Shown here: in pieces, positions 5,372-59,292 of the stretch
Position numbering within the stretch: position 1 is the stretch's first letter
Layout: each line of letters starts with the position of its first letter
NCBI GenBank assembly: GCA_030650415.1
Contig: JAUSEG010000042.1
Location: 15,052-79,051 of the forward strand
DNA length: 64,000 nt
From: a bacterium
GTDB taxonomy: Bacteria > Patescibacteriota > Patescibacteriia > Patescibacteriales > GWC2-42-12
Direction of reading: 5' to 3'
The notes under the pieces: generated by a model
Database searches by the model: none
Seen by the model: the letters and a program-made list of their open reading frames with translations, nothing else
Told to the model about the DNA's origin: nothing
Program-made: the position numbers and the translations under genes

Positions 5372-5402
5372 CCCTCTTTAACAAAGGGGGTGAGGGGGAT
5401 TT
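5372..5402 (+). repeat. hairpin+G-run repeat (CCCTCTTTAACAAAGGGGGTGAGGGGGATTT)
   Basis: Same unit as 51590-51621, 48780-48808 and 61293-61321. Lies between nrdR and nrdD. Confidence 0.8.
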
Positions 5403-44738: not shown

Positions 44739-44895
44739 GTCATTCCCGAAGCCGAAGGCTGTCGGGAATCCAGGAGTTAAATGTGCTATTATTATTTATA
44801 ACATACATCTGCCAGATAAATATTCTTTTAATTAATTTTATTCTTTAATATTACTCCTGCTTTCTCTCATGGATTCCCGCCTTCGCGGGAATGAC
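44739..44895. mobile_element. 157-bp MITE-like element, GTCAT...ATGAC family
   Basis: GTCATTCCCGAAGCCGAAGGCTGTCGGGAATCCAGGAGTTAAATGT...CATGGATTCCCGCCTTCGCGGGAATGAC, followed by a CTCGCAATGAC half-unit. Confidence 0.7.
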
Positions 44896-44927
44896 AAGGA
44901 GGCTCTCGCAATGACATCCACAATATT

Positions 44928-47362: not shown

Positions 47363-47563
47363 GTCATTGCGAGGAGCGAGTGAATCCGCCAGCTGGCGGA
47401 GCAACGAGCGACGCGGCAATCTCTGGTTAGAAAAACTTAACTAATCTAATGCCAAAAACTCTTTAAGCAAAATTTAACTTATTAATATAAGCATTTCCTA
47501 TTATTTTGTCTTTCTTTTTAACCATAGATTGCCACGCCTGCCTGTTGGCAGGCTCGCAATGAC
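47363..47563. mobile_element. ~200-bp MITE-like element (GTCATTGCGAGG...GCTCGCAATGAC)
   Basis: Composite palindromic ends (CCGCCAGCTGGCGG on the left, GCCTGCCTGTTGGCAGGC on the right) flank an AT-rich core. It fills the dprA-topA spacer. Confidence 0.65.
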
Positions 47564-47572
47564 ATCTAAAAT

Positions 47573-49858
47573 ATGAAACTAGTTATCGTCGAATCACCAA
47601 CCAAAGCCAAAACCATTACTAAATTCTTAGGTTCCGATTATACTGTCGAATCTTCTTTCGGGCATGTCCGCGATTTGCCGGTCAGTAAAATGGGTATTGA
47701 TATTGAACATGATTTTGAACCGAAGTATGTGGTGCCGAAAAAAGCCAAGGTTAACTTAAAAAAACTTCAAGAATTAGCTAAAAAATCAGACTTGATAATT
47801 CTCGCAACCGACGAAGACCGCGAAGGCGAAGCGATCGCCTGGCATCTGGCCGAAGCGCTTAAAGTTGATCCGAAAGATACTAACCGCATCGTCTTTCATG
47901 AAATTACCAAAACGGCAATCGCGGAAGCTATCGAGCATCCGAGAAAAATCGATATGAAACTGGTAAACGCCCAGCAGGCTAGAAGAATTCTTGATCGCTT
48001 GGTCGGCTACGAACTCTCCCCTTTCCTCTGGAAAAAAGTCGCTAAAGGCTTATCGGCCGGACGCGTGCAATCAGTGGCGGTTCGTTTAATTATTGAACGA
48101 GAACGAGAAATTAAAAAATTTAATATTGAAGAATATTGGTCGGTTTCGGCTAATCTGTCTCCCTACGAGAGATCTGGCGTAGCCAGACAGAACGGCGAAA
48201 AGCTCCCCTTCTTGGCTCGGCTAAATAAAGTTGACGGCAAAACCATTGATAAGCTGGAAATTAAAAATGAAAGTCAGGCGGCGGAAATTCTCACCGCGCT
48301 AAAAGGCGCGAAATATCTGGTGACTGATCTGGAAAAAAAGCAAACTAAGAAGCAACCGCCCAAACCATTTATCACTTCGAGCCTCCAGCAAACCGCCAAC
48401 CGCTGGCTCGGCTTTTCGGCTAAGCAGACTATGATGGTAGCGCAGCAGCTTTACGAAATGGGCTTTATAACTTACATGAGAACCGACTCTTTGAACCTGG
48501 CTGACAAATTTTTAAGCGAGGCGGCCGAATATTTAAAAACTAATCTGGGCGAGAAATATAGCCTAGCTACGCCGCGCCGCTTTAAAACTAAGGATAAAGG
48601 CGCGCAAGAAGCGCATGAAGCCATTCGCCCATCCGAAGCGTCGCGCGCGCCGGAAGCGGCAGCCGCCGACCTGAATCCTAACCAGAATAAACTCTATAAA
48701 TTGATTTGGCAGAGAGCCGTAGCTTCGCAGATGACCGAGGCCATCGTGGATGCTACGGTAGTTGATATCGACACTATTACCCCCTTGATAAAGGGGGCTA
48801 GGGGGATTAATCGCCAATTTCAATTCCGCGCCAACGGCCAAGTTATAAAATTCGACGGCTACCTTAAAATTTATCCGGAAGCCAGCCAGGAAATAATCTT
48901 GCCGGAAATTAAAGTTAAAGAAGAATTGGAACTCCTGGAATTAAAACCCGAACAACATTTTACCAAACCGCCGGCCAGATACTCGGACGCCGGTTTAGTT
49001 AAAGAACTGGAAAAACACGGCATTGGCCGACCTTCTACTTACGCGCCGACTATTAACACAATTATTGACAGAAATTATGTCCAGCGCGACGAAAATAAAC
49101 GCTTAGGCCCGACCGATATCGCCTTCGTAGTAATCGATTTATTGGTTGAGCACTTTCCCAAAATTGTAGATTACGAATTTACCGCTAAAATGGAAAATGA
49201 TTTGGACACAATTGCCGAAGGCGGAGCTAAGTGGCAGCCGATCATTAAAGAATTCTACGACCCTTTCCATGCCAATTTGGAAAATAAATATGAGTCCATT
49301 AATAAAAATGATATCGTGCCGGAAGAAAAAACCACCGAGATTTGCGATAAGTGCGGCGCGCCTATGATCATAAAAACCGGCCGTTATGGAAAATTTTTGG
49401 CTTGCAGCGCCTTTCCCGAATGTAAAAACATAAAATCCCTGCCCGGAACCGATAAAAACAAAAACGGCCTAGCTGATAGTAAAGAAATTGATGAATTAAA
49501 AGAAAAGTATAAAACCGAAGTTTGCGGTAAATGCGGCGCGCCCATGGCGGTTAAAGTCGGAAAATTCGGCCCCTTCCTTGCCTGCTCCGCTTACCCGAAA
49601 TGCAAAAATATTAAGAGCATAAACGGCCCGAGCCAACAAACCGGCATAACTTGCCCGGTCTGCAAAAAAGGCGAAATCGTGCAAAAACGCAGCCGCCGCG
49701 GCATCTTCTACGCTTGCAACCAATATCCTGACTGCAAAACCGCTTTCTGGGGAAAACCAACCGGCGAAAAATGCCCTGACTGCGATAGTTTACTAATTGA
49801 AGACGCTAAAAAGGGCGAAGTTAAATGCTCAAATAAAGAATGCGGGTATATTAAATAG
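47573..49858 (+). CDS. topA: DNA topoisomerase I
   Basis: TOPRIM (LVIVESPTKAKTI; ATDEDREGEAIAW), active-site region (ITYMRTDS) and several C-terminal CxxC Zn ribbons. Confidence 0.93.
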   Translation: MKLVIVESPTKAKTITKFLGSDYTVESSFGHVRDLPVSKMGIDIEHDFEPKYVVPKKAKVNLKKLQELAKKSDLIILATDEDREGEAIAWHLAEALKVDPKDTNRIVFHEITKTAIAEAIEHPRKIDMKLVNAQQARRILDRLVGYELSPFLWKKVAKGLSAGRVQSVAVRLIIEREREIKKFNIEEYWSVSANLSPYERSGVARQNGEKLPFLARLNKVDGKTIDKLEIKNESQAAEILTALKGAKYLVTDLEKKQTKKQPPKPFITSSLQQTANRWLGFSAKQTMMVAQQLYEMGFITYMRTDSLNLADKFLSEAAEYLKTNLGEKYSLATPRRFKTKDKGAQEAHEAIRPSEASRAPEAAAADLNPNQNKLYKLIWQRAVASQMTEAIVDATVVDIDTITPLIKGARGINRQFQFRANGQVIKFDGYLKIYPEASQEIILPEIKVKEELELLELKPEQHFTKPPARYSDAGLVKELEKHGIGRPSTYAPTINTIIDRNYVQRDENKRLGPTDIAFVVIDLLVEHFPKIVDYEFTAKMENDLDTIAEGGAKWQPIIKEFYDPFHANLENKYESINKNDIVPEEKTTEICDKCGAPMIIKTGRYGKFLACSAFPECKNIKSLPGTDKNKNGLADSKEIDELKEKYKTEVCGKCGAPMAVKVGKFGPFLACSAYPKCKNIKSINGPSQQTGITCPVCKKGEIVQKRSRRGIFYACNQYPDCKTAFWGKPTGEKCPDCDSLLIEDAKKGEVKCSNKECGYIK
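48780..48808 (+). repeat. hairpin+G-run repeat inserted in frame in topA
   Basis: CCCCCTTGATAAAGGGGGCTAGGGGGATT is translated as PLIKGARGI. Confidence 0.75.
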
Positions 49859-50695: not shown

Positions 50696-51583
50696 CTACT
50701 TAAAAACGCTAAGCAGCTTTAACCAATCATCAACCGATAATTCCTGGGCTCTAATCTTACCGTTAAACCCGGCCTGAATAATTTTATTTTCCGCATCAGC
50801 TTGATCTATCTTAAAACCGGCGGCTAGATTATTTTTTAGCATCTTTCTTCTGGCGCTAAAGCCGAATTTCACCAATTGAAAAAAGTTTTTTTCTCTCTCT
50901 ATCCCCCCTGACAAGGGGGGAAGAAGGGGGGTTTTATGGGGTATAATTTTTATTATAGCACTATCGACCTTCGGTTCCGGCCAAAAAAATTCCTTGGGCA
51001 CGAGTTTAATAATCTCCGCTTGAGCGTAAAATTTAACCGAAACGGAAAGTAAACTCATTTTCCCGGGCTTGCCCCGTGAAATGCGCTTCGCGCCCCGACT
51101 TATTGCCGGGATTTCACGGGGTGAAGCGGTAATTCTTTCCGCCACTTCCTTTTGCAGCATGAGCGCCATTAAATCGGGCTTTATTTCCGCCTCAAGAAAC
51201 TTTCTTAAAAATATGGAAGTAATGTTATATGGCAGATTCGCCACAACTTTAAATTTTGAAATTGGAAATTTTAATATGTCGCCATTTACTACTTCGACAT
51301 TCTCAATCTTCCGCGCGGCCAGTCCGATCTCTAAAACCTCGGCCAATTTATCGTCTAACTCCACGGCGATTACTTTTTTAACTCGAGCTGCTAGCTTAAA
51401 CGTCAAAAAACCTAAACCCGGTCCAACTTCTAAAACTATGTCATCAATTTTTAAATCGGCCGCGGCCACCATCTCGTCGTAAGCTTCTTCTCTAATTAAA
51501 AAATTCTGCCCTTTTGAGCGGGCAGGAATTATCTGATGCAGTTTGCACAAATTTTTAGTTTGTTCGAGTAAATCCATATACAT
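50696..51583 (-). CDS. rsmA: 16S rRNA (adenine1518/1519-N6)-dimethyltransferase
   Basis: KGQNFL, VLEVGPGLGFLT, ANLPYNI and FSARRK motifs. Contains two repeat-derived in-frame insertions. Confidence 0.9.
   Translation of the reverse strand: MYMDLLEQTKNLCKLHQIIPARSKGQNFLIREEAYDEMVAAADLKIDDIVLEVGPGLGFLTFKLAARVKKVIAVELDDKLAEVLEIGLAARKIENVEVVNGDILKFPISKFKVVANLPYNITSIFLRKFLEAEIKPDLMALMLQKEVAERITASPREIPAISRGAKRISRGKPGKMSLLSVSVKFYAQAEIIKLVPKEFFWPEPKVDSAIIKIIPHKTPLLPPLSGGIEREKNFFQLVKFGFSARRKMLKNNLAAGFKIDQADAENKIIQAGFNGKIRAQELSVDDWLKLLSVFK
50903..50931 (+). repeat. hairpin+G-run variant inside rsmA
   Basis: CCCCCCTGACAAGGGGGGAAGAAGGGGGG, read on the minus strand as PLLPPLSGG. Confidence 0.6.
51072..51121. 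repeat. 50-bp CCCCGTGAAAT...ATTTCACGGGG element inserted in frame in rsmA
   Basis: Perfect 11-bp inverted arms. It is translated as part of PREIPAISRGAKRISRGK, an 18-aa block that interrupts the usual KsgA ...A.PG.K.Y..LSV... region. Confidence 0.75.
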
Positions 51584-51589
51584 TTACTA

Positions 51590-51621
51590 CCCCCTTTAAC
51601 AAAGGGGGACAAGGGGGATTT
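51590..51621 (+). repeat. hairpin+G-run repeat
   Basis: CCCCCTTTAACAAAGGGGGACAAGGGGGATTT. Confidence 0.8.
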
Positions 51622-52147: not shown

Positions 52148-52228
52148 CCCCGTTAGAAATTAATCCATATTAACGGACTGTAAATCGCTTATATATCTAT
52201 AATTTTATGAATAATATTTCTAACGGGG
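52148..52228. repeat. 81-bp element with perfect 13-bp TIRs CCCCGTTAGAAAT/ATTTCTAACGGGG enclosing a start codon
   Basis: Left TIR at 52148-52160, right TIR at 52216-52228, and the ATG at 52207 inside. The outer flanks TTTTCA/TAAAAA extend the inverted repeat. Confidence 0.75.
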
Positions 52229-59072: not shown

Positions 59073-59091
59073 TATCTTATTGTCATTGCGA

Positions 59092-59292
59092 GGATCCGCC
59101 AGCTGGCGGAGACGAAGCAATCTTCTTAATTGTCATCCCCGACCTGATCGGGGATCCAGAAATATAGCCAGAGTATACAATTTTGGATTCTCATGGCTAC
59201 GCCAGATCTCGCATAGCGATGACCGCCTGCGCGGGAATGACAGAAACGGTGAGATTCCCGGGTCATGCCCGGGACTAAAGGCTCGCAATGAC
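59092..59292. repeat. nested repeat cluster upstream of porG
   Basis: Outer GTCATTGCGAGG...GCTCGCAATGAC. Inner 78-bp-type unit at 59132-59241, itself interrupted at 59191-59222 by a 32-bp unit that also occurs at 58029-58062. Confidence 0.75.

Follow-up and report, generated by a model that had tools for sequence, protein, structure and literature searches.

In-frame selfish palindromes are textbook knowledge for Rickettsia and a few proteobacteria only. The Rickettsia palindromic elements (RPE), which Ogata et al. are said to have described in 2000, are reportedly Rickettsia-specific, with RPE-1 measuring about 100-150 nt. A related situation is met in a 64-kb stretch of contig JAUSEG010000042.1 (the window, positions 1-64000) from a Patescibacteriota host of lineage GWC2-42-12, an organism of the candidate phyla radiation (CPR) type with a small genome, where the topoisomerase I gene topA carries a short hairpin-forming repeat at 48780-48808. 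This stretch is probably one copy of a non-autonomous mobile (selfish) element of ~30 nt that resembles repetitive extragenic palindromic (REP) sequences and transposable elements of the miniature inverted-repeat type (MITEs) and represents the end of a DUF559-type unit. Its likeness to RPE lies in palindromic selfish DNA standing in frame within housekeeping genes of a reduced genome and encoding short tolerated peptides; however, the present element is 29-31 nt long, combines its hairpin with a second G-run, displays a motif that occurs in many phyla, and resides in a Patescibacteria-like host.

REPs of the GTAG and CGTC superfamilies are 20-40-nt palindromes that are mostly intergenic and often arranged as inverted dimers (Di Nocera et al. 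2013, PMC3733652). Some of them lie within open reading frames (ORFs), notably in DNA synthesis and repair genes, different REPs occupy the same site in Xanthomonas recB orthologs, and RPE-4 and RPE-6 are treated as intragenic REPs (PMC3733652). The repeat in topA shares with these elements the small palindrome, the inverted dimers, the copies in ORFs and the presence of different elements at the same orthologous site; however, it features a conserved unpaired N3-4 stretch, GGGGG and ATT 3' of the hairpin, and no GTAG or CGTC tag is present in the five copies of the window or in 135-145 copies from other genomes. The known kind to which it belongs is that of the intragenic REP- and RPE-like selfish palindromes (PMC3733652); what is notable here is the tiny size, the hot-spot loops and the link to DUF559.

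TopA of the window (gene 47573-49858, + strand) is a 761 aa protein with the Pfam domains Toprim, Topoisom_bac and three Zn_ribbon_Top1, compared to 741 aa in most orthologs. The repeat copy, CCCCCTTGATAAAGGGGGCTAGGGGGATT, has its core at 48780-48808 and forms a 30-nt insert at 48779-48808 on the + strand; it consists of the hairpin CCCCC-TTGATAA-AGGGGG, the spacer CTA and the tail GGGGGATT, and is translated in frame as codons T403-I412 (TPLIKGARGI) within the local sequence DTITPLIKGARGINRQ. When set against its best 120 homologs, the window TopA is 20 aa longer than the typical homolog, and the excess consists of two 10-aa blocks. At the block formed by the repeat (site 2), P0002 from L121 (90% aa identity) and P0004 from L122 (85%) read VVDISAQGTTYQFRANG where the window reads VVDIDTI-TPLIKGARGI-NRQFQFRANG, and the DNA of both L121 and L122 is shorter by exactly 30 nt; the loop has 5-6 residues in 88/120 orthologs and is extended by 6 to 28 residues in 32/120. 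Because the nearest orthologs lack exactly these 30 nt and the short loop prevails in 88 of the 120, the TopA residues are, as judged by alignment, inserted and not ancestral. The first-pass annotation had proposed that in-frame insertions are selected to stay open or are tolerated in a specific frame, and had allowed for ancestral TopA residues as an opposing outcome; the insertion itself is upheld by its absence from the nearest orthologs, and ancestral residues are not what the ortholog alignment displays.

A second copy in frame, CCCCCTTGATAAAGGGGGTTAGGGGGATT, is found in porA (core 61293-61321, insert 61292-61321, + strand), where it is translated as SPLIKGVRGI within GSPLIKGVRGIFN, confirming that topA and porA carry the same type of peptide. 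The hairpins of the two copies are identical and the sole difference is in the spacer (TTA in porA vs CTA in topA); the porA copy is also flanked by degenerate C-run and G-run remnants, CCTCCCTTGAGCGG upstream and GGGGGAATT downstream. The shared peptide follows from the available frames. Sense frame 1 meets a stop at CCC CCT TGA and sense frame 2 at GGC TAG (topA) or GGT TAG (porA), leaving only sense frame 3 open (CC CCC TTG ATA AAG GGG G.T AGG GGG ATT). Since two of three sense frames of this sequence carry stops, PLIKG.RGI is the one sense reading with which a copy can persist in a gene, and the identical topA/porA peptide is, from the sequence itself, best taken as forced by the frames and not as special evidence. 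Two antisense frames are open and yield peptides of the NP..PPL..GG type, as seen in rsmA and eno.

The loop of the hairpin had also been thought to separate coding from non-coding copies, with TTGATAA in genes and TTTAACAA, which would give a TAA stop, between them. Copies with the TTTAACAA loop are indeed intergenic in the window (5372-5401 and 51590-51620), and the stop is obtained only when the reading register is set by the 3' GGGGGATT; in the register that topA uses, which is fixed by the 5' C-run, the copy reads TPFNKGGQGG with no stop. TTGATAA-loop copies are likewise apparently intergenic in other Patescibacteria, lying between ORFs on ORF maps only (L067:3100-3125 and L040:2126-2151), and the former is identical to the topA copy, including the CTA spacer. 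Coding copies elsewhere contain many loops, and orthologs of PorA and TopA display versions with PLT, PLA, PLV, PLS or PLL; the loop type does not distinguish the two classes, and the argument built on loop and stop is abandoned.

A selected protein feature, in which PL.KG.RG would be a variable loop that TopA and PorA inherited from their ancestors and no DNA would have been inserted, is largely refuted and scarcely credible. The same loops are variable in many orthologs and several inserts display a PL.KG pattern, which is in keeping with such a feature; however, the minimal TopA loop is the majority state, the nearest relatives have no insert, and antisense reading in rsmA and eno produces an unrelated peptide. 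Furthermore, the complementarity of the hairpin is kept while the amino acids differ, and identical DNA is found outside genes; together with the use of both orientations, this argues that the element is selected or renewed at the nucleic-acid level.

Four site-2 inserts compared as DNA are hairpin elements of differing sequence with stems that are intact or near-intact. The topA insert of L124 is CCCCCCTTGCAAAGGG..CCCCCTCCTTACGAAGGAGGGG-CC-GGGGGAGGTT and that of L126 is CCCCTCTCCTTACTAAGGAGAGGG-CT-GGGGTGAGG; L125 features an in-frame inverted doublet (C6TTGTAAAG6-TGTA-G6TT, 22 nt, AAC5-TTAA-C6TTTACAAG6) that folds as a single long hairpin of -37 kcal/mol (z -8.3). P0037 carries at this TopA site SPLIKGVRGI, the peptide of the window PorA copy. 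A recurrent +6-aa insert, GTQN(L/I)AS(L/I)Q, is also seen at site 2 in P0053, P0063, P0064, P0071, P0086, P0095 and P0107, which suggests that another small element family uses the same loop.

Alignment to E. coli TopA (4RUL) places the site-2 insert in the turn TLT..VGAG..DFRLKARG and the second block, SPYERSGVAR, in ASTTT..PSGEAL; both positions we take to be β-hairpin turns of domain II in the E. coli structure. An AlphaFold model of the window TopA is mediocre (mean predicted local distance difference test score, pLDDT, 67.8) and served solely to locate the insert; residues 403-415 are modeled as a loop that joins strand 390-402 to strand 416-425, pLDDT being <50 at 406-412, and the insert would fit a tolerated surface extension. 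The SPYERSGVAR block is encoded by a second 30-nt in-frame insert at 48158-48187, a different palindromic element (TCTCCCTACGAGAGATCTGGCGTAGCCAGA) with a fold of -8.5 kcal/mol, and is missing from L121 and L122; the loop at this site (site 1) holds other inserts in many orthologs, such as P0005, P0009, P0031, P0036 and P0101.

PorA (gene 60335-61621, + strand; Pfam POR_N and PFOR_II) is 428 aa long vs ~385-388 aa in the shortest orthologs. Across 114 orthologs, the empty form TIG-KSNKIGILKIK is common at the position of the window insert (site B), and inserts of at least 4 aa are present in 38/114; tandem ITPLIKGD.G units are found at site B in Patescibacteria, with three in P0203 (L088) and five in P0204. 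PorA of the window contains a further 17-aa insert, GAKRPIGSHGKLQELRD, at 61091-61144 (residues ~253-270), within a ~90-nt palindrome (TGTCATCCTGGAG...CTCCAGAATGACA), and this loop holds inserts in 36/114 orthologs. Some Patescibacteria PorA orthologs, of ~710 aa (P0158, P0197, P0198, P0213, P0217 and P0218), contain an intein with a LAGLIDADG homing endonuclease, such that porA hosts selfish in-frame inserts of a further class.

The remaining copies of the window lie in or near rsmA/ksgA and near nrdD. RsmA (gene 50696-51583, - strand) is 295 aa vs 276 aa in L122, and contains a divergent copy, CCCCCCTGACAAGGGGGGAAGAAGGGGGGTTTT, at 50903-50935 on the + strand, which runs antisense to rsmA and keeps its reading frame (TPLLPPLSGG); the net gain at this position is 8 aa over L122 RsmA. 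Upstream of rsmA, an intergenic copy with the TTTAACAA loop and an ACAA spacer occupies 51590-51620 (+ strand), and when read on the - strand its G arm precedes the start codon of rsmA by 6-7 nt. Synteny between the window and L122 spans 38.3-57.6 kb of the window, and global alignment shows that L122 lacks both the copy in rsmA and the one at 51590. The fifth copy, with the TTTAACAA loop and one stem mismatch (CCCTC...), lies at 5372-5401 (+ strand) between nrdR and the start of nrdD; the TTTAACAA-loop variant measures 31 nt from C-run to ATT, 1-2 bases longer than other copies. An antisense copy is also present in the enolase of L062 (KSPRPPLSRG), such that in-frame insertions missing from orthologs are seen in the conserved genes topA, rsmA and porA of the window and in eno of L062. 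RsmA of the window also contains a strongly palindromic 54-nt in-frame insert at 51071-51124 (CCCCGTGAAAT...ATTTCACGGGG; -21.6 kcal/mol, z -5.2), which adds SPREIPAISRGAKRISRG to the protein and is missing from L122.

Copies in the window genome occupy both intergenic sites and gene interiors, three of the five being within genes. The 18-nt hairpin has 8 matches with ≤3 mismatches in the window vs 0.10 expected from 100 shuffles, none of which reached 8. The repeat is limited to ~30 nt, and the flanks of the window copies do not align to each other; the topA copy has ATTA on both sides, and the other window copies are without such flanks. Folded as single-stranded DNA (ssDNA), the stems have energies of -7.6 to -8.1 kcal/mol with z about -2 to -2.9, which is a modest hairpin, and the 5372 copy folds more weakly (-4.8 kcal/mol). 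All five copies are written on the + strand, an agreement of weak significance (p ~0.06). GC skew is negative in each 4-kb bin of window 1-64000, genes before 40 kb are mostly on the - strand, and the window seems to be part of a single replichore; the common orientation against a uniformly negative skew is suggestive of strand-specific insertion (n=5).

The motif extends well beyond Patescibacteria. A scan with the exact pattern CCCCCTT-N3-4-AAGGGGG-N3-4-GGGGGATT, using one genome per species, produced matches at ≥120 loci in many phyla, with ~0.3 expected by chance on a uniform-composition estimate. The matches listed are from Patescibacteria, Peregrinibacteria, Bacteroidota (Algoriphagus, Cyclobacterium), Nitrospinota, Myxococcota, Desulfobacterota, Chloroflexota and others, with Calothrix, Dulcicalothrix and Chamaesiphon among the cyanobacteria listed; several copies per genome are often seen among them. 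The 135-145 copies compared have unrelated flanks and variable loops and spacers; C5TT..AAG5, the second G-run and ATT are invariant by design of the search pattern. Beyond the pattern, a loose A-Y-T precedes the C-run (T at -1 in 98/145) and a T follows ATT. Small dispersed repeats (SDR) of Nostoc and cyanobacteria, which Elhai et al. are said to have described in 2008, are reportedly 21-27-nt hairpin-forming mobile repeats that are nestable and occur in genes; to our knowledge, no enzyme partner has been reported for them. SDR resemble the present element in being very small hairpin-forming repeats, and cyanobacteria are also matched by the motif scan.

Neighboring copies form 110 pairs, of which 39 are +-, 41 are -+ and 30 are direct; gaps of 27-55 nt and 10-21 nt are preferred, and symmetric overlapped forms occur as well. 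Inverted doublets are frequent among motif loci outside the window, which itself has none; the mostly inverted arrangement of neighboring copies is the pattern of REPINs (REP doublets forming hairpins). A classical REP/REPIN moved by a REP-associated tyrosine transposase (RAYT, an HUH Y1 enzyme) via single-stranded intermediates would account for a short G+C palindrome of 20-40 nt and for the frequent inverted doublets 27-55 nt apart, L125 included; the five copies on one strand with uniformly negative GC skew are the expectation of strand-specific ssDNA transposition, the loose A-Y-T before and the ATT at the end are reminiscent of the way in which IS200/IS605 specify target and cleavage sites, and intragenic REPs are documented in DNA-metabolism genes (PMC3733652). 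This explanation is nonetheless decidedly unlikely, as the GTAG/CGTC tag is missing and the one recurrent motif-adjacent small ORF family in 120 loci is DUF559, not Y1_Tnp. No recurrent Y1 transposase flanked by repeats was found in the 120 loci, where ten ORFs between repeat pairs, judged by eye only and with whole genomes not searched, look ordinary or nuclease-like (lspA, Rpn-, Mrr- and Uma2-like), a Y1 transposase not being evident among them.

The DUF559 family emerged from the clustering of 3011 ORFs at the 120 motif loci; it is encoded by a ~125-aa Vsr-like PD-(D/E)XK nuclease gene and lies next to the motif in 7/120 loci, in Bacteroidota and Calothrix. The ORFs from L024, L034 and L045 match PF04480 with E values of 3.5e-31 to 6.5e-30 and 104-108 bits (cut-off 20.6). 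At 5/7 loci the DUF559 ORF is bracketed by inverted copies with their G-run/ATT ends inward (L024 990-1541, L069 204-706, L110 396-962, L045 6837-7332 and L034 1690-2429), and inverted motif repeats around DUF559 genes are seen in Bacteroidota, Cyanobacteria and Nitrospirota. The reverse test began from 80 DUF559 genes on metagenome contigs, chosen by protein similarity alone with the motif disregarded; in 49/80 genes at least one flank has an inward-pointing copy no more than 250 nt away, and in 20/80 both flanks do. Motif density is 2.41 per kb at ≤250 nt from a DUF559 gene vs 0.135 per kb farther away (18-fold), with 72 inward vs 18 outward copies near the genes. The units have clean ends, measure 410-570 nt and contain DUF559 as their only gene, which sits at the position of the 15-55-nt spacer of inverted doublets. 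Terminal-repeat subfamilies can be told apart by the tail past the second G-run (GGGGGATT, GGGGGTTGT, GGGGTGTGT and GGGGGGAGGTT), and at least three tail types of DUF559 units recur in CPR topA inserts (GGGGGATT, GGGGGAGGTT and GGGGTG..). The family as a whole is very large, with 7901/8000 candidates scored in one profile search.

REPIN/RAYT systems (REPtrons) consist of a single-copy-type enzyme gene bracketed by inverted repeats together with scattered solos and doublets (Bertels & Rainey 2011, PMC3116915; Quentin et al. 2018, PMC6006769). The DUF559 unit has the same layout, an enzyme gene between inverted copies with many solos and doublets; however, the bracketed gene encodes a DUF559 Vsr-like PD-(D/E)XK nuclease rather than an HUH Y1 transposase. 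Two units were also seen joined to larger ORFs: a complete unit stands in frame within an hsdR-like ORF of >1100 aa (L168:46-3360), between GGVIFTTIEKF and the DEAH box, and in L140 a unit extends the upstream ORF at its C-terminus as an in-frame fusion.

The homing endonucleases of phages and inteins include members of the Vsr family (bioRxiv 10.1101/2022.08.31.505936), and a DUF559 unit resembles such selfish cassettes in that a small Vsr-fold nuclease is all that it encodes. DUF559 might then be a free-standing homing endonuclease with the motif as its recognition or cleavage site, the solo copies being targets or repair scars; the DUF559 gene sits exactly at the 15-55-nt spacer position of doublets, and the unit in L168 is in frame within a gene. 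We regard this as unlikely; the described cassettes have no terminal repeats of the hairpin type, and their homing is to a single cognate site, which leaves the new 30-nt copies at topA, porA, rsmA and eno, sites that are empty in relatives, unexplained. Each unit also has both ends as clean inverted repeats, which is more typical of a transposon-like unit.

For the mobile element, the following course is proposed. The element, made up of a hairpin of 5-7 G+C bp followed by a spacer of 3-4 nt, a further G-run and ATT, would be the structured terminal inverted repeat of a DUF559-only unit of 0.41-0.57 kb, as seen in other phyla and presumed here. Solo copies and short inverted doublets would be MITE- or REPIN-like derivatives, moved in trans or left behind by the DUF559 nuclease. 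Within essential genes, persistence would need whole codons, either the single open sense frame or an open antisense frame (of which there are two), and a tolerant surface loop; because of this filter, we infer, topA and porA share PLIKG.RGI and a few loops are hit repeatedly across Patescibacteria. MITEs are found in frame in Coxiella burnetii genes (PMC5896051), and MITEs as such are known from prokaryotes generally (PMC10969869); as in those cases, the present elements are non-autonomous, carry inverted repeats, extend or interrupt ORFs, and have ends in common with an enzyme-encoding unit, here seen outside the CPR. Those MITEs are larger, however, and derive from DDE-type insertion sequences with target-site duplications, while the present element is a single 30-nt end or a doublet.

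Intergenic copies are also seen directly 5' of start codons, at rsmA (51584-51620, - strand), dut (L090:6341-6366) and rpmE (L002:2535-2560), with the G-run 3-8 nt from the ATG; ribosome binding is a role that such copies may have acquired by co-option. If the repeat were a structural signal under host selection (for RNA stability, termination or ribosome binding, with the coding copies as incidental), these copies would speak for it, as their G-run is at a Shine-Dalgarno-like distance. This explanation is very improbable, since three of five window copies are inside genes, both orientations are used, the hairpin has no following U-tract, and relatives have orthologous sites that are without the element and otherwise unchanged; a search of the entire window against Rfam at gathering thresholds gave no match.

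Several points weigh against a mobile element of the DUF559 type. No exact target-site duplication could be defined, and the flanks give only a loose A-Y-T ... ATT pattern; among the relatives compared, no filled/empty pair exceeds 95% identity, such that recent movement is only presumed, and L122 and L123 give no presence/absence polymorphism because they are 99.995% identical. The recurrent same-site inserts could in part be old and homogenized by gene conversion, as the window and P0125 have PLSGSPLIKGVRGI in common in PorA. The intergenic status of the L067 and L040 copies comes from ORF maps alone, and the common orientation of the five copies is of the weak significance given above. A search for DUF559 with hmmsearch in the window and ~0.2 Mb of CPR loci found none, and the named DUF559 clusters are from Algoriphagus and Thermodesulfovibrionales, not the CPR; because the units are seen outside the CPR and none is in the CPR DNA examined, we only infer the partner for this genome. 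No literature describing the hairpin/G-run element or DUF559 as its enzyme was found, with most subscription journals being outside coverage.

Other small repeats are present in the same region. A MITE-like family of ~165-235 nt with inverted ends GTCATTGCGAG...CTCGCAATGAC (12 end matches vs 0.6 expected) has copies at 40541-40706, 43114-43279, ~44793-44915, 47363-47563, 59082-59292 and 62748-62981; the first four are missing from L122, and those at 59082 and 62748 are beyond the aligned stretch. An 81-nt element at 52148-52228 with perfect ends CCCCGTTAGAAAT and ATTTCTAACGGGG is also missing from L122, and a shorter relative of it lies at 41542-41617. L122:18238-19619 contains an RVT_1 reverse transcriptase and a bAvd gene, resembling a diversity-generating retroelement (DGR), next to leuS, where the L122 alignment to the window has a break. 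An origin of the repeats from this DGR-like locus was considered and rejected, as the repeats are dispersed and unrelated to the reverse transcriptase and bAvd.

Loops of TopA, PorA, RsmA and enolase are repeatedly remodeled in Patescibacteria, whose minimal genomes are usually regarded as streamlined. The inserts inflate apparent protein divergence and create PL.KG-type low-complexity segments in annotations, and probably also break short-read assemblies. It is possible, and proposed here tentatively, that the hairpin, G-run and ATT mark a cross-phylum family of minimal mobile elements that appears to have gone undescribed, a REPtron-like system with another enzyme, in which the DUF559 unit would be autonomous, 30-nt solo ends and inverted doublets would spread through genomes, and their in-frame persistence in surface loops would make the essential enzymes of Patescibacteria hypervariable there. 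The link to DUF559 gives a family of unknown function a testable role as the enzyme of a hairpin-ended mini-element; DUF559 would be the second enzyme class behind REP-like repeats, besides RAYTs.

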